Shown: piece by piece, positions 23,203 to 47,517 of the stretch | How the letters are laid out: each line of letters begins with the position of its first letter | Numbering within the stretch: position 1 is the stretch's first letter | Source: a virus | Strand: one strand, 5' to 3' | IMG/VR virus record: IMGVR_UViG_3300046507_000506 | Location: 1 to 64,000 of that record | Length of the DNA stretch: 64,000 bases | Made by a program: the position numbers and the translations under genes | Notes under the pieces: model-generated | Told to the model about the DNA's origin: nothing | Seen by the model: the letters and a program-made list of their open reading frames with translations, nothing else | Databases searched by the model: none

Positions 23203-23853
23203 ATGACTAATGTGAACCCGCCGCTTGAAGCGAACGGCTCGATACCGGCCGCGTGTAGCTGCGCGACGTGCCGCCCTATGTCTATGACAGACATGCGTAT
23301 GATTCTGTGTGCACAGTGCGGGAACAAGCGCTGCCCGCACGCCGCCGATCATCGTCTCGCGTGCACGAACAGCAACGAGCCGGGACAGCCCGGCAGCAAC
23401 TACCCGCGCGTACCGGCCGCCGCCGACCTACCCCGCTTCCCTACAGTGCTGCGCAAAATGTGGAGCGGCGGCGAGGTTCAGGCGTGGCTCGATGAGCACG
23501 TCGCGCCGGTAGTCGGCGAAAACGCATACGTCGAAAAGCGATTGGCTGAAAGCCTCGCGGAGGTCTACGCCACGATCCTTGGTGATGATGCGCGGGATCA
23601 GGATGACAGTCTCAACGCTATCGAGCGCGTGAAGAAAGCCGCGCAGGTGCTGAGGCTTGAGGTCGATCTTTACCGGGAAAATGCTGATGCATCGGTGCAA
23701 TCAGTCAAGCCAGTGGCGGAAGTTCAAGGCTCTGATCTAGTTATCGGTCGAGAGTCGCGCGCCTTGCGCTGGTTGCCCGGTATTGACCCTTACGCGACGA
23801 AGCCCGGCACGAAGCTCTATACCGGACCTCAATCGACGCAGGAAAAGGATTGA
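23203..23853 (+). CDS. Mosaic hypothetical protein (Cys-rich N-terminus)
   Basis: MILCAQCGNKRCPHA and FPTVLRKMWSGGEVQAW modules. Confidence 0.7.
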   Translation: MTNVNPPLEANGSIPAACSCATCRPMSMTDMRMILCAQCGNKRCPHAADHRLACTNSNEPGQPGSNYPRVPAAADLPRFPTVLRKMWSGGEVQAWLDEHVAPVVGENAYVEKRLAESLAEVYATILGDDARDQDDSLNAIERVKKAAQVLRLEVDLYRENADASVQSVKPVAEVQGSDLVIGRESRALRWLPGIDPYATKPGTKLYTGPQSTQEKD

Positions 23854-26561: not shown

Positions 26562-28667
26562 TCAGTTGTAATAGAGCGGCACGAGCGCCATTGCATCGGC
26601 GACGACATAGCCAGTCGTGCCGGTGTTGCTCACCACCACCTTGTTATTCGCCTGGTCGCCTGCGGTGAATGAGTAGGTTCCAATGAGCTTCCACGCGCCG
26701 CTACTGTACTGGTTGATGTTGACTGCCGCCTGTGCCACGCCGCCAGCGGTCACCGTATGCGGCACGTTGCCCGCGCGCGTGGCCCCTTCTGGAAAGAACG
26801 CATAAACCGCGTAAGTGCCCGCTTTCGCCAGATTGAAACGGAACTCGACCGTGCCGGTCCCCTTGTTCACCGCGTTGTCAGTGATGTAGGTTGGCCCATA
26901 TGCAGAGGCTTCACTGAAGGTGGCGAAGGTCTGCGCTTCCTGCCACGTACCGGCGACGACCATCTGACCGTTCGGATCAGCATACGTGCCTGCCGCGCTC
27001 GCACCGGGCGGCAGGTCGAGCACGATTGCGCCGGGCGGGAAATAGCCCATCGCTTCCCTGATCTTGTACGGGTCAACCGCCTGCACAGTGGTTGCGAGGT
27101 CAATCGCACGCGCCGCCGCATAGCCCGCCGCCTCGCCCAGTTGCATCGCGATAGGCTCGACGCGGATAGACGCGAACGCAGCATGCGACGCCGACACGGC
27201 GAACGTAACGAGCAGGTTCGTGCACTCGGCGGCCTTCGGACACATGGCCTTGTAGCTGATCCAGTAGCGGCCATCCTGCCCGCCCGCCTGCGTTTTCTGG
27301 AAGAACCCGCCTTCGAGCGCGACGTACCCGTTATAGACGACCGTCTGACAGTGATGCGAGTCCATTGCATAGAAGCCGACGCAGATGCCGTCGGTCACCA
27401 GATCGATGCGCTGGCAATGCCGATCCGTCATGACGAAGTCGCCGACCATGCGGCGGCCCTCGCGCACGTACAACTGCTTCGGCATGCCGTGACGGGTAGG
27501 CATCTGCGAATACGGCGGCAGGCCGAATCCGGCGAGCGTCGTTTTGATGTTCGCAGGCACGCGCGCATCCTCGCGCAGGAACTTGAACAGCCCGAGCGTC
27601 CAATCGACATGCTGCTTATAGATGGCGGCGCGCTGCGCATACGTCGCCGTCGGCCACGCGTCCGCGCCGCCGATGAAATCAAGCTGTTGCAGGGCCGCGC
27701 CCGCATTGAGGTCGGTCACGCCATCTTTGCAAAGCCGGTCATTGAAAAGGCCGGGCGGGCTCGCGTTGTCGCTCCACGCCGTGATATGCCCGGCCGCGAA
27801 CTGACGCCCAAGAATCTCGTAATTGAGCGGGTTGTAGGTCGTCGGCTCAGGAAACCTGCGGTACGTTCCCGGCCCGCCACTGGTCGAAACGACGTTGACG
27901 CGGAACCCGTACGCCTGCACGCGGCTATCGCCCGATCCAACTGCGCCGACAGCAGCATTCACGCCCGGCAGCAAACCGGAAGCGGCAACACCGGCAGTCA
28001 CGTACGGATCGACCTGCCACGCGCCGCCCTTGTTGTAGGGCGCGACGACGCCGTTGTATGTCTCGTTGTACTGGCTGTTCGGCTCCCGCCCGACGGTGAA
28101 CGAGCACCCTGCCGCCGCCATAAGATCGCCTTCATAGGTCGCGTCGATATAGACCGACGCAGTCACCGAAAGCAGAGGAGCCGTGACCGGCGTAAGCGCA
28201 TCCTCAAACGTCACCGCCGTTATTTTCGTGCCGGTCTTTTTAACGCCAGTCGCAACCACGCGGTAGTTGTGCCGCACGACAATCCGACTCGCGGCAAGCA
28301 GCGCCGTCAGTTGCGTGGCCATCGTCTTTGGCGAGCCGTTGAGACTTTGCCCCCAAAAGGTCGGGTAGTCCGTCGCATTGGCAGTGTAGTTCGCGCTCCA
28401 TATGGCGCGATACAGCACGTTCGCCAGCCCCTTGAGCACGTTGCAATCGCCGCCCGCACGGTCGGTATAGCTCAGGCCGCCTTGCGTTGGCATACCCCCG
28501 AATATCGCATCCGGGTTGATGAGTTCAACGAGCATGCCGTTCTGAGCCGCAGACACGGCGGCCATGATGCCGCTTGCCGTTGCACCATATACGCAAACAT
28601 CAACGTTCCGTGTCGCGTACAGCGAATCAGCCTTTTTTCTGGAGATCGGCGGCGGTCCCATATCCAT
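26562..28667 (-). CDS. FAD-dependent oxidoreductase (PF12831-like) with C-terminal xanthan-lyase/golvesin-type CBD
   Basis: VCVYGATASGIMAAVSAA Rossmann motif, YIDATYEGDLMAAAG, LYVREGRRMVGDFV, SIRVEP; C-terminal GAWKLIGTYSF...GYVVADAM. Confidence 0.85.
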   Translation of the reverse strand: MDMGPPPISRKKADSLYATRNVDVCVYGATASGIMAAVSAAQNGMLVELINPDAIFGGMPTQGGLSYTDRAGGDCNVLKGLANVLYRAIWSANYTANATDYPTFWGQSLNGSPKTMATQLTALLAASRIVVRHNYRVVATGVKKTGTKITAVTFEDALTPVTAPLLSVTASVYIDATYEGDLMAAAGCSFTVGREPNSQYNETYNGVVAPYNKGGAWQVDPYVTAGVAASGLLPGVNAAVGAVGSGDSRVQAYGFRVNVVSTSGGPGTYRRFPEPTTYNPLNYEILGRQFAAGHITAWSDNASPPGLFNDRLCKDGVTDLNAGAALQQLDFIGGADAWPTATYAQRAAIYKQHVDWTLGLFKFLREDARVPANIKTTLAGFGLPPYSQMPTRHGMPKQLYVREGRRMVGDFVMTDRHCQRIDLVTDGICVGFYAMDSHHCQTVVYNGYVALEGGFFQKTQAGGQDGRYWISYKAMCPKAAECTNLLVTFAVSASHAAFASIRVEPIAMQLGEAAGYAAARAIDLATTVQAVDPYKIREAMGYFPPGAIVLDLPPGASAAGTYADPNGQMVVAGTWQEAQTFATFSEASAYGPTYITDNAVNKGTGTVEFRFNLAKAGTYAVYAFFPEGATRAGNVPHTVTAGGVAQAAVNINQYSSGAWKLIGTYSFTAGDQANNKVVVSNTGTTGYVVADAMALVPLYYN

Positions 28668-33298: not shown

Positions 33299-33339
33299 AT
33301 TATCAGAGGGCAAGGCGGCGCGGGCGGGCGTGCTTTTCC
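33299..33339 (-). promoter_or_regulatory. Late promoter motif GGAAAA-N29-GATAAT
   Basis: Fixed spacing. Confidence 0.7.
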
Positions 33340-33346
33340 GAGGAGC

Positions 33347-33532
33347 TTATTCGAGCGCGGTTTTCACGAGCACCGCGAGGCGTAGATACTCGCCTACCCA
33401 CTTCGGGAACCTCTGCGCGCCCATCCATCGCGAAACGGTCGTCGGATCGACGCCGAGGCGGCGCGCGAACTCTGCTTGCGTCCATCCAAGCGTGGCGAGA
33501 GAATGGGAAAAGTCGGCTGTTTTCATAGCCAT
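33347..33532 (-). CDS. Small XRE-family HTH protein
   Basis: LGWTQAEFARRLGVDPTTVSRW. Confidence 0.8.
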   Translation of the reverse strand: MAMKTADFSHSLATLGWTQAEFARRLGVDPTTVSRWMGAQRFPKWVGEYLRLAVLVKTALE

Positions 33533-33595
33533 GATCTTAGCAAAATGCAGAGCTTTGCGCGGGTCAGTATCTGCATTTTGCAGATTGGAGGGTTT

Positions 33596-33844
33596 ATGGA
33601 CTTACCGCAAGCTGATGGCGCTGACCCGGCCACCGTTTTCACGGCCGCACTTGCCGCCCTGTTCAGCACACACCCCGATCCTGCGGCCCTCCTGAAGGCT
33701 TGGGAGCCCGTCGCCACGTCCATCCCCCTGATGATGCTGAAGAACGGCGCTACGGACGTGCACGCGAATGCAAACGTGGTGATCGCGCAGGCACTGCTCC
33801 ATATCGCGCGAGTGAATGCAGGCGCGCCGCCACCTGTTGACTAG
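33596..33844 (+). CDS. Hypothetical protein (start MDLPQ)
   Basis: GGAGG RBS. Confidence 0.6.
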   Translation: MDLPQADGADPATVFTAALAALFSTHPDPAALLKAWEPVATSIPLMMLKNGATDVHANANVVIAQALLHIARVNAGAPPPVD

Positions 33845-33865
33845 GAAACCCGCGCTTCATACACT
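33837..33865 (+). promoter_or_regulatory. Sigma70 promoter TTGACT-17-TACACT driving the RNA array
   Basis: Predicted +1 (~33872) coincides with first base of first stem. Confidence 0.7.
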
Positions 33866-33871
33866 GGCGAC

Positions 33872-34648
33872 GCTTTCACACATGGCGGCTTGGTGCAGTA
33901 AGAGCCTGCCCCGCCAGTGCCAGCCGGTCGCGCGAGCGACGTATGCGGATAGCCGCCATTGTGAAAGCCGCTCCCATGCGGTCCAGTTAGCAAGTCGCCT
34001 TGTGCCGCTTGTCCGCATCGCTGCAATGGGAGCACCTTCAGCACGGCCGTAGCTCAGTTGGTAGAGCGCCCCTCGTATGGGGAGAGAAGTAGTCGCGAAA
34101 TGGCGGTAGCGCCCGCGCGACGATCTTCCGGTATCGGCCGGTACGCGCGCGGGTTCGAATCCCGTCGGCCGTGCTGAGGGTGAATGGTGGACGTGAAACT
34201 ATGTCCCTTACTTTGCATGCACTGACCTGCCTCTGACTGTACTGCGAATCAGACCGAGTCATCATTCACTCTCAACAGATGCGGAACCGTGGGCGGCGGT
34301 GAGTCAGTAGGGAAAGCGTCGATTGAACGATGTAGCGTTCGGCGCGGAGCCCGAAAGCAATAGACCGTGCGAGTGGTCGAGCATGCCGTTAAAGCGCAAG
34401 GTTCTGGCGCATGAGCAGGGGAAGGGCCTGCACTCTCACGCATGGCGATCGGTGGAGTACCGTTCAAGAAATCGTCAGTTCCGTGCGCTTGCGGAACCAG
34501 TCGCCATGACGTGAGAGTGATCGGATAGTGGAAAGCGCAGGCGTCACAGCCGTCTAGCAGGGTTCGATACCGTGCCCTTTCACTCTCAACGCGCGGCCTG
34601 TAAGGGTTGTACCGGCCAGCCAGTGACCCCTTAAAAGGTCCGCCGCGC
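33872..34648 (+). ncRNA. Polycistronic array of ~8 stem-closed structured RNAs
   Basis: Units 33872-33968, 33970-34033, 34035-34180, 34180-34269, 34279-34412, 34431-34519, 34512-34588, 34591-34648, each closed by ~9-18 bp stems; no credible ORF. Confidence 0.75.
34043..34173 (+). tRNA. Non-canonical tRNA-like element (Thr-CGT-like loop, 66-nt extra region, no encoded CCA)
   Basis: Acceptor ACGGCCG/CGGCCGT, D-arm GCTC-AGTTGGTA-GAGC, T-arm GCGGG-TTCGAAT-CCCGT. Confidence 0.7.
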
Positions 34649-34672
34649 ACCCTTCCCCCTCACACCACCACC

Positions 34673-35155
34673 ATGACATTTCCCTTCCGCGATACCGAAG
34701 CGGCGCTAATGGCCGCCGAAATTCGAGAGCAGATTTACGAGGATTTCCGTTCGGTTGTGGGCACGAATGAGCCCAAGCCTTATACACCGCCCGCGCCGAT
34801 GCCGACATACGAGGAAATGACCGAGCAGTTGCATCGCGCGGCGAATCCCACGCCTGCCGACGTGGCGGCGCGCATGCTCAACCAGCAAGCGCAATCCGGT
34901 GCACCGCCTTGGTCTTGGGAATGGGTGATGGGCGAACCGCTATGGCTCGAAATGCGCCGGGCAATGAAGCGCGTGAAGCGTGAAGCGCCCGCGTATGCGC
35001 CGCTGCCGGAAAGCGTCACCAAGCCGGAAGTGCTCGACCTGGTAGACCTGCGCGACGCTGGCTATGAGTTGTTGGACGTGACAGCCGACGGCGTTGTTAC
35101 GCTGCGCTCGCCCCATACCGTGCGAGCCGTCTACATGACTGCGACCATTCGCTAG
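34673..35155 (+). CDS. Hypothetical protein co-transcribed with the RNA array
   Basis: Only ORF between array and terminator; no clear SD. Confidence 0.55.
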   Translation: MTFPFRDTEAALMAAEIREQIYEDFRSVVGTNEPKPYTPPAPMPTYEEMTEQLHRAANPTPADVAARMLNQQAQSGAPPWSWEWVMGEPLWLEMRRAMKRVKREAPAYAPLPESVTKPEVLDLVDLRDAGYELLDVTADGVVTLRSPHTVRAVYMTATIR

Positions 35156-35174
35156 TGATCGCGCCAAGCCAACG

Positions 35175-35204
35175 AAAAGGCCCGGCATTGCGTCCGGGCC
35201 TTTT
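35175..35204. terminator. Bidirectional intrinsic terminator
   Basis: AAAAGGCCCGG...CCGGGCCTTTT between convergent genes. Confidence 0.85.
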
Positions 35205-35213
35205 CACATTCCG

Positions 35214-35612
35214 CTAGATCGGGTGATTCTTTACGAGGTATTCGCTCGCCTCGTCTACCGTATCAAACTCAGCGAGCACAACGTAATCCTCATCCGGGCG
35301 TTGCGGCATTCGCGCCAGCTTGACCTTGGGCACGTCCATGATGATGGTCGGACGCTGGCGACCGCGCAGATAGTCCGCCTGCAACGCCTCTGCCAGTATG
35401 CAAGCCTCATCATAGGTATCGACCATGCCGAGGTATGTGGGCCGGTCCCACGCGCCGCCGTTCAGGCATCGGACCTCGATCTTTCCATCGTCTCGCGTTA
35501 CGCCGTAAGGATGATCCCACCAGGCATCAAGCTCGGCTTTGCTGCGCTCCTCATTGGGCGTGGCGTCGAACATTTCCGGCAGGTCTGGATCAAGGGGAAT
35601 GCGGTTGGGCAT
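35214..35612 (-). CDS. Hypothetical protein
   Basis: AAGGAG RBS; VRCLNGGAWDRPT motif. Confidence 0.75.
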   Translation of the reverse strand: MPNRIPLDPDLPEMFDATPNEERSKAELDAWWDHPYGVTRDDGKIEVRCLNGGAWDRPTYLGMVDTYDEACILAEALQADYLRGRQRPTIIMDVPKVKLARMPQRPDEDYVVLAEFDTVDEASEYLVKNHPI

Positions 35613-46923: not shown

Positions 46924-47517
46924 TTAGCGGCTCCCGAATGGGCGGGATTGCAGGCGGTTCGCGGACATGAGCTTGCGTTTGGGCCAGCGGTTCGCACTCT
47001 TGATGGTCGGCTTTTCCTTAGTCGGGTTTGCCGATATAATTGCGGTTCTCACTGCATTTCCTTTCGAAAAGCCGCGACCTGCTCCAACAGGTTCGCGGCT
47101 TCGTCGTTCTACGGGCGTCACTTTCTTTTCGATGGTCCGCGCCGCCAGCGGCGTGACCTTCTTCGTGATCGGCTTGTGAGCCGTAACGGGTTTCGACGCC
47201 AGAAACTCGTCAGTCGGCCAGAGCCCCTTACGCTTTAACTTCTCCTCGCTCTCGCGCATCGCGGCGGCAAACCGCGTGAGCACGAATTCGCGCGTCATGC
47301 CGTCCGGGCGCTTTGCCTGCCCATCGAGCACCATGTGGCACGCGTAGCAGGCGTATGCGCCGATGTGATCGACGCGCGCGAGCTTCTTGCCTTTCGCCTT
47401 GCCGCCCTCGTGCGAGTTCGAGTGCGCCCAAACCGTTGTTTCCCAGTTCCCATTGCACACGCCGGGCAAACGCAAGGCGCACGTTTCCCCGCGTGCCGAT
47501 TCAGTGATTCGGCTCAC
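46924..47517 (-). CDS. DUF1364 (YbcO-like) nuclease-fold protein with basic tail
   Basis: SARGETCALRLPGVC..ETTVWAH...ACYACH. Confidence 0.85.
   Translation of the reverse strand: MSRITESARGETCALRLPGVCNGNWETTVWAHSNSHEGGKAKGKKLARVDHIGAYACYACHMVLDGQAKRPDGMTREFVLTRFAAAMRESEEKLKRKGLWPTDEFLASKPVTAHKPITKKVTPLAARTIEKKVTPVERRSREPVGAGRGFSKGNAVRTAIISANPTKEKPTIKSANRWPKRKLMSANRLQSRPFGSR

Follow-up and report, generated by a model that had tools for sequence, protein, structure and literature searches.

In the 64,000-nucleotide stretch of viral DNA examined here (positions 1 to 64,000 of IMG/VR record IMGVR_UViG_3300046507_000506; hereafter, the window), the list of open reading frames (ORFs) leaves one stretch without genes, at 33845-34672, that holds a row of seven RNA units. 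We favor, with moderate confidence, the view that this array is transcribed as one polycistronic precursor from which stable small RNAs are made, with a closing helix common to units 1 and 6, termed here the wrapper, that pairs the ends of a unit and probably marks it for excision. The wrapper encloses interiors, or bodies, that are unrelated to one another, and its pairing is preserved through compensatory changes in related elements.

The window is part of a record of 93.6 kilobases (kb) that is syntenic with pBVIE05, an 88-kb plasmid of Burkholderia vietnamiensis G4 (~70% identity across 43 kb). Because of this synteny, and because the record carries tail-fibre-like genes, the element is taken to be of the phage-plasmid type. 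Comparisons were made with the element's own 93.6-kb genome (G000), pBVIE05, an IMG/VR contig (L002), a further contig (L009), and the P2-like Burkholderia phage Mana. Three of these sequences, namely the window, L002 and pBVIE05, contain orthologous arrays in which a helix-turn-helix (HTH) regulator gene, a promoter and the array have a common layout. The corresponding gap on pBVIE05 spans 854 base pairs (bp) and is unannotated.

Units 1 and 6 share a structurally conserved wrapper

A preliminary description of this locus had presented units 1 (33872-33968, plus strand) and 6 (34431-34519, plus strand) as paralogous RNA scaffolds with compensatory mutations and different interiors. Both sequences are present where it had placed them. 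Their 5' arms agree at 22 of 28 positions with one gap, giving a local alignment score of 24 against a mean of 9.5 for shuffled sequences (reached by 1 of 2000 shuffles; p ~0.0005). The reported alignment of the 3' arms is marginal when these are taken on their own (p 0.05), and the interiors are unrelated, as had been noted (p 0.55). The two covarying stem positions were also confirmed: base-helix position 3 changes from T-A to C-G, and position 8 from A-T to G-C. Each stem does keep a single bulged base, but the two bulges lie on opposite strands and differ in identity: in unit 1 a C bulges from the 5' strand between two helices of 9 bp each, and the stem encloses 60 nucleotides (nt); in unit 6 an A bulges from the 3' strand between a base helix of 10 bp and an upper helix of 9 bp, and the stem encloses 50 nt. 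Compared with shuffled sequences, the folds of units 1 and 6 have z scores of -2.95 and -4.10, respectively. A hairpin descriptor scan of the entire 93.6-kb genome returned these two units alone at such strength; the remaining matches were at the level of shuffled genomes (0-4 per shuffled genome).

The proposal that a constant closing scaffold is under selection as RNA structure held up in a wider set of sequences, in which more members were found: nine wrapper units with compensatory changes, distributed over five elements (the window, pBVIE05, L002, L009 and phage Mana). The wrapper consists of a terminal helix of 8-10 bp with conserved YYTCAC.. / ..GTGARR, a small irregularity, and an upper helix of 4-15 bp. 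Its type A form (GCTTTCA... / ...TGAAAGC) closes the first unit in all three arrays, while the type B form (CTCACGC... / ...CGTGAG) is represented by unit 6 in the window, by two units in L002 and by one in pBVIE05; L009 and Mana each contain a similar unit. Across the nine units, 96.3% of cells in the 9-bp base helix are paired and six of its nine pairs are altered on both sides. Covariation in this helix is 0.66 compared with 0.35 after shuffling (none of 500 shuffles reaches it), and controls in which the helix was slid pair at 32-58%.

The irregularity occurs once per unit, at a distance of 8-10 bp from the helix base except in L009, where 5 bp precede it, and takes several forms. It is a 5' bulge in the type A units of the window and pBVIE05 and a 3-nt 5' bulge in unit uA of L002. 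In Mana and in the type B units of the window and L002 the bulge is on the 3' side, and unit uB of pBVIE05 and the L009 unit have a 1x1 mismatch. In the upper helix, pairing is kept although the sequence is nearly all different among units. Comparison by eye of the 24-bp helices of L002 units uB and uC revealed three compensatory, four wobble-compatible and no disruptive changes. Including the irregularity, the helix is 16-27 bp long in most units (14 bp in L009 and in L002 uA), or about two turns.

A model of the wrapper (R1) scored unit 1 at 74 bits and unit 6 at 56 bits, both being among the rows on which it was trained. It revealed no additional wrapper units in G000, pBVIE05, Mana or two more contigs; its best extra match, at 47284-47419 of the window, was unstructured and was taken as a false positive. 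In Burkholderia genomes, R1 matched the body of L002 uB/uC and not the wrapper. With scores of 39 versus 31 bits and a plus-strand terminator close by, the L009 unit is of uncertain orientation.

Other routes to relatives were pursued. Among Rfam models, only that for transfer RNA (tRNA) matched the array, on unit 3; units 1 and 6 had no match even at expectation values (E) up to 10 with a 111-nt query, and neither the Mana unit nor the chromosomal relatives described below had an Rfam match. Distant relatives of the HTH regulator (52-55% identity) have no array beside them, except for the possible unit of L009, 1.1 kb away. A pattern combining the promoter with the start of a unit gave 120 metagenome and three extra viral matches, which lack a closing stem and were set aside as chance. 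Blast of the array against 400 Burkholderiales genomes returned ordinary tRNA D-arm matches only. When further arrays were sought through the flanking proteins, a 160-amino-acid ORF yielded one relative and an 82-amino-acid ORF none. Literature searches on pBVIE05 and on tRNA-like phage decoys produced nothing specific.

Evidence for a plus-strand transcript

Only one promoter-like site was found within 33300-35300: a sigma-70-like promoter on the plus strand (33837-33865; TTGACT, 17 nt, TACACT) that ends 6 nt ahead of unit 1, which thus starts at the predicted 5' end of the transcript. L002 and pBVIE05 have an equivalent single site, and across the three arrays the promoter ends 6-8 nt ahead of the first unit.

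The plus strand folds more stably than the minus strand in 12 of 14 units (summed energies of -724.5 versus -634.1 kcal/mol), and plus-strand folds contain 52 G-U pairs compared with 26 in minus-strand folds. Model R1 likewise scores the plus strand higher, for example 74 versus 31 bits and 56 versus 33 bits, and the tRNA model matches unit 3 on the plus strand exclusively. Because fold stability, G-U asymmetry, model scores, the tRNA match and a promoter at the foot of unit 1 all agree, the evidence points to an array that functions as plus-strand RNA, not at the level of DNA.

Wrapper and body assort independently

Apart from the L002 paralogues, no two interiors are related in sequence, not even those of units at orthologous positions. 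The interiors of units 1 and 6 were compared with 50,697 phage records by blastn. The interior of unit 1 matched phage Mana at 87% identity across 60 nt (E 6e-12), next to the cos site. The Mana sequence is a complete, stem-closed unit in the same sense, preceded by its own promoter-like site (TTGGCT, 18 nt, CATAAT) and followed by a convergent gene, and for these reasons (its completeness, sense and promoter-like site) we regard it as a homologue rather than a target. Its base helix is type-B-like and its upper helix wholly different. Between the window and Mana interiors, six of nine differences form three compensatory pairs.

A pattern search of 95 Burkholderia genomes recovered more prophage copies of the unit 1 body, these with still other stems. 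The four distinct members of this family share three internal helices, in which 11 of 27 pairs show compensatory changes; conserved unpaired segments are the 12-nt AGUGCCAGCCGG and the loop UAAGAGC. In the window this three-helix module occupies 33891-33950 on the plus strand and also has a GCGA tetraloop. Judged by this pattern of substitution, the unit 1 body behaves as a conserved structured RNA and not as a spacer.

Two side observations concern the Mana family. A Mana-like prophage copy (L208, 1431-1555) retains the wrapper of Mana and the body's 3' half, with unrelated sequence in place of the 5' half, a case of mosaicism within a unit. In Mana itself (L181, 2079-2480), the ORF CPT_Mana_057, annotated as a 'putative membrane protein', covers the predicted cos site and extends into the small-RNA gene; this ORF call looks doubtful.

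L002 units uB and uC carry the wrapper of unit 6 around an interior homologous to a ~115-nt RNA in chromosomes of the Burkholderia cepacia group (8 of the 95 Burkholderia genomes), where its outer stem is a different one. Model R2, derived from this body without units 1 and 6, had no match in the window at E up to 10; unit 6 is thus linked to uB and uC by the wrapper alone. The body of unit 6, two small hairpins, has no homologue detected by R2 or by blastn of the phage records. The same wrapper therefore holds unrelated bodies, and the same bodies sit in other closing stems elsewhere, so wrapper and body assort independently.

The chromosomal RNA loci (L196-L202 and L204, positions 1501 to about 1616 of each) are unannotated, have a long closing stem and an invariant ACGCUGCCAUAUGCGA, and are preceded by ~150 nt of conserved sequence. 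The ORFs that flank the L198 locus encode Bc2L-type lectins. In L200, a match to a SymR-like antitoxin RNA (2340-2414; 50.8 bits, with a cut-off of 61) lies ~0.7 kb from the chromosomal RNA.

The preliminary description had gone on to read units 1 and 6 as members of a guide or antisense family, in which a constant protein-binding or processing scaffold would present a variable interior that might pair with phage, host or rival-element sequences. A constant wrapper around unrelated interiors is what such a family would look like, and the unpaired 12-nt segment of the unit 1 body could be a seed. This part of the proposal was not supported. Against G000, pBVIE05 and Mana, the longest complementary stretches in the array measure 14-15 nt, versus 12-17 nt for shuffled arrays (host chromosomes were not screened), and a 15-nt match of the tRNA-like unit to G000 23405-23419 was rejected as lying inside the shuffle range and being lost in pBVIE05. 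Duplex energies with the downstream start region are no better than those of shuffles in all three arrays, the blastn search of phage records gave no target-like match, and a plasmid collection, queried with whole unit 1 only, gave matches at chance level. Two phage genomes that carry the unit 1 body have no target in common. Nor do the interiors resemble spacers: they are conserved and folded, with compensatory changes, in the case of unit 1 in other genomes as well. Lastly, no conserved effector gene lies beside the arrays, the HTH regulator alone being conserved. We consider a guide function unlikely. A further candidate, a sponge for CsrA/RsmA, was rejected since GGA motifs are neither enriched nor strand-biased.

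Other units of the array and signs of cassette exchange

The units of the arrays adjoin or overlap by 0-8 nt. In the window, unit 2 (33970-34033, plus strand) is a 64-nt stem-closed hairpin with a fold z score of -2.5 and a preference for the plus strand. Unit 3 (34033-34182, plus strand) is a tRNA-like RNA that matches the Rfam tRNA model at 43.7 bits; its acceptor stem is extended to 17 bp, its D and T arms are normal, a stump of 4 bp and 6 nt replaces the anticodon arm, and two extra hairpins are present. ARAGORN called no tRNA in the window. Unit 4 (34175-34275, plus strand) has a 16-bp closing stem that reuses the last 8 nt (TGAGGGTG) of the unit 3 stem, and unit 5 (34276-34430, plus strand) is weakly structured (fold z -0.3). 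Unit 7 (34512-34588, plus strand) contains a T-loop, is closed by GAGAGTGA/TCACTCTC, reuses 8 nt of the 3' arm of unit 6, and has no blast relatives in the phage collection. Alternating CACTCTCA / TGAGRGTG elements permit alternative pairings between units 3 and 4 and between units 6 and 7.

The tRNA-like unit belongs to a tRNA-shaped RNA family with five members (window 34033-34182; L024 4365-4509; L025 1070-1210, minus strand; L026 8166-8306; L027 12408-12548) and 16 covarying pairs. It is characterized by an invariant D arm, a CCCCUCGUAUGGGG stump where the anticodon arm would be, and two additional hairpins ahead of the T arm, and is common to Burkholderia phage-plasmids and three enterobacterial-type viral contigs. 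In the latter, a DicF-like small RNA (33 bits, under the cut-off) comes after the tRNA-like unit, and L027 also has an STnc100 match at 79 bits; these matches lie at L027 12934-12982 and 3906-4094 and at L026 8320-8500. The DicF-like part recurs in phages SfV, SfII, mEp460 and Stx2c, often beneath 'hypothetical protein' calls.

The block at 34508-34590 that contains unit 7 is 97.6% identical to L002 3476-3558, whereas the other units and the flanks are 65-80% identical or unalignable; unit 7 is absent from pBVIE05. Such identity means that this one cassette was exchanged recently or else is very strongly constrained. Together with a unit order that varies among arrays, the near-identical block points to cassette-like exchange.

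Shuffling of units among arrays, and a near-identical block within otherwise diverged ones, might also be explained at the level of DNA, with the inverted repeats serving as recombination or protein-binding sites, or as attC-like folded single-strand sites for cassette exchange. The architecture is attC-like in its conserved base helix, extrahelical base and variable top, and a serine recombinase gene lies close to the pBVIE05 array. However, the asymmetry of G-U pairs and folding energy favors a plus-strand transcript, a promoter stands at the base of unit 1 in all arrays, and the series includes a tRNA-like unit. Unlike integron attC sites, the units have no ORFs between them, and their cores are TCAC/GTGA, in contrast to the attC R boxes (GTTRRRY). 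By family match, no recombinase lies among the genes flanking the window array; screening for a recombinase or integrase did not extend to the remainder of the genome, nor was an integrase searched for specifically. A DNA-level element is, in our estimate, very unlikely.

Genes around the array and the question of a leader

A small HTH (Xre-type) regulator gene (33347-33532, minus strand) is divergent from the array and was assigned by matches to Pfam HTH_31/HTH_3 and a PHROG transcriptional regulator. Its product is 85% identical to the regulator beside the L002 array and 83% identical to that of pBVIE05. A perfect 12-bp inverted repeat with an 18-nt spacer (33540-33581) is likely the operator at its promoter. 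Between regulator and array promoter lies an ORF of 82 amino acids (33596-33844, plus strand) that has no family match and no relative among viral contigs. It is exclusive to this element; in L002 and pBVIE05 the regulator and the promoter are ~90 nt apart.

On the other side of the array, the untranslated region ends in a C-rich 3' tail (34589-34672, plus strand) with no Shine-Dalgarno sequence ahead of the next ORF. That ORF (34673-35155, plus strand; 160 amino acids) is the sole downstream gene ahead of a convergent gene for a DNA-binding protein (35214-35612, minus strand). At 35171-35301, a strong hairpin bordered on each side by runs of U and A is probably a two-way terminator, which would limit the array operon to one ORF. 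The 160-amino-acid ORF has a homologue after the L002 array (43% identical), and no family match or further relative in 5.8 billion protein clusters. As seen at window 34640-34690 and L002 3895-3950, both homologous ORFs lack a Shine-Dalgarno sequence and begin in ...CCACCAUGAC. A different, unrelated ORF lies downstream of the pBVIE05 array.

Elsewhere in the window, amid the tail-fibre-like genes, a 701-amino-acid protein (26562-28667, minus strand) combines an FAD-dependent oxidoreductase domain with a Golvesin C-terminal domain, which is unusual for a phage structural region.

The alternative pairings in units 3/4 and 6/7 keep alive a cis-regulatory reading, in which the alternating elements form mutually exclusive helices that would govern read-through or translation of the downstream ORF by attenuation or antitermination, and the units would not stand alone as RNAs. 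The 3' arms of units 3 and 6 can each pair backward or forward, L002 has an intrinsic terminator between array and ORF, immediately ahead of the latter, the ORF lacks a Shine-Dalgarno sequence, and the array sits where lambdoid phages have early-leader elements. Conversely, the downstream ORF differs between arrays, no terminator is present directly ahead of it in the window or pBVIE05, and the solo gene of the unit 1 body in Mana has nothing downstream to regulate, since a convergent gene follows. At 0.8 kb and seven independent domains, the array is also far above known attenuators. On balance this reading seems rather unlikely.

The order of promoter, RNA units, terminator (in L002) and small ORF (125-160 amino acids) also recalls a type III toxin-antitoxin system, in which the RNA array would act as an antitoxin that is processed by, and inhibits, the product of the downstream ORF. 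Such a system is extremely unlikely here: the units are not near-identical short tandem repeats and their interiors are unrelated, the downstream ORF has no ToxN/AbiQ-like or other family match, an unrelated ORF takes its place on pBVIE05, and the unit 1 body stands solo in Mana.

A model for processing of the array

Proceeding from the RNA structure, strand, promoter position and modularity of wrapper and body documented above, and from the lack of antisense targets in the sequences searched, we propose that 33872-34672 is transcribed as the plus strand from one promoter and yields about seven separately folded small RNAs. The wrapper would serve as an adaptor within the array, holding RNA ends double-stranded and thereby conferring stability; most likely it would also mark cut sites for a host double-strand-specific nuclease (of the RNase III type) or another end-processing enzyme, in the manner of the leader-trailer helices of rRNAs. 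A role as excision mark and stabilizer is suggested because unit ends are paired, units adjoin or overlap by at most 8 nt, the base of the helix is conserved in sequence, and bodies are exchangeable. The element lacks genes for Ro60 (TROVE), RNase III and reverse transcriptase, so host enzymes would be needed. The bodies would be independent structured RNA modules, probably protein-binding or regulatory, and not guides.

Several points weigh against this model. The transcript, its ends and its processing are predictions; the functions of the bodies, too, are inferred; and the covariation counts come from few, partly related sequences (the five elements with a wrapper). Bulged stems of 17-25 bp fit RNase III without being specific to it, and a bulge could equally protect from this enzyme. 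The conserved sequence of the base helix and a GGCG core in the upper helix suggest that some partner recognizes the wrapper in a sequence-specific way. In addition, simple excision leaves the overlapping alternative pairings of units 3/4 and 6/7 unexplained.

A more elaborate possibility, improbable but not negligible, is that the wrapper is the handle of a dedicated system for RNA-gene exchange. Burkholderia phages would capture RNA modules from the host chromosome or other phages, re-clothe them in one stem of conserved sequence and shuffle them as cassettes, with some factor reading the base helix and bulge for excision, loading or recombination.

Unannotated structured-RNA arrays at the front of phage and plasmid operons escape gene callers and Rfam. 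What had been described as variable cargo is better seen as a set of distinct conserved RNAs that can be studied individually, rather than as presumed guides. The findings also suggest that phages gather small RNAs, possibly mimics of host RNAs among them, and package them anew. Because pBVIE05 resides in a cultured strain, B. vietnamiensis G4, these predictions are directly testable.

Comparison with known systems

Bacterial Y RNAs (YrlA, Rfam RF02553) pair with Rsr/Ro60. Like them, the units described here include stem-closed small RNAs, some of them tRNA-shaped, and Y RNAs too are often arrayed in phages. Unlike them, the units have no Rfam YrlA match, the element has no Ro60 gene, and the tRNA-like unit is not circularly permuted. 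The lack of a reverse transcriptase gene in the element likewise sets the array apart from retrons and other non-coding RNAs linked to reverse transcriptases.

Processed immunity RNAs, including c4 of P1 and P7, CA of N15 and CI of P4, pair with sites in their own transcript. The array resembles them in yielding, by prediction, promoter-proximal structured small RNAs from an operon leader beside a repressor gene in a phage-plasmid, and differs in that no such complementarity was found and seven units have different bodies.

An expressed small RNA of 193 nt, sRNA-17, is encoded in an intergenic region of an mEp460-type prophage in Escherichia coli K1 RS218 (Song et al. 2020, PMC7719688). Its setting is similar to that of the enterobacterial contigs with the tRNA-like unit, which also have stem-closed RNAs in an mEp460-type early leader. 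No sequence links sRNA-17 to units 1 or 6, and it could not be mapped onto the matched stretch.

Parallels also exist for a row of viral RNAs released from one transcript. The species 1 and 2 RNAs of phage T4 are co-transcribed with tRNAs, and murine gammaherpesvirus 68 encodes the TMER units, each a tRNA plus hairpins. As in those systems, the array is a viral row of tRNA-shaped and hairpin RNAs in a single predicted transcript, whose release would depend on host tRNA- or RNA-processing enzymes; it differs in containing no true tRNA gene and in having a Burkholderia host.

The wrapper itself resembles the stalks cleaved by RNase III, namely the leader-trailer helices around 16S and 23S rRNA and the R sites of phage T7 early RNA. 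In both cases the flanks of a structured RNA pair into a helix of about 17-25 bp with a small irregularity, within a polycistronic transcript of adjoining units, and pairing persists although most of the helix sequence is free to vary. Here, by contrast, the stalks are predicted from sequence, the base of the helix is conserved in sequence, the enclosed RNAs are modules of 50-90 nt, and some stems overlap by 8 nt. We know of no common wrapper for the T4 species 1 and 2 RNAs or the TMERs. A processed array of stable phage RNAs is of a known kind; the shared, exchangeable wrapper is its new aspect.

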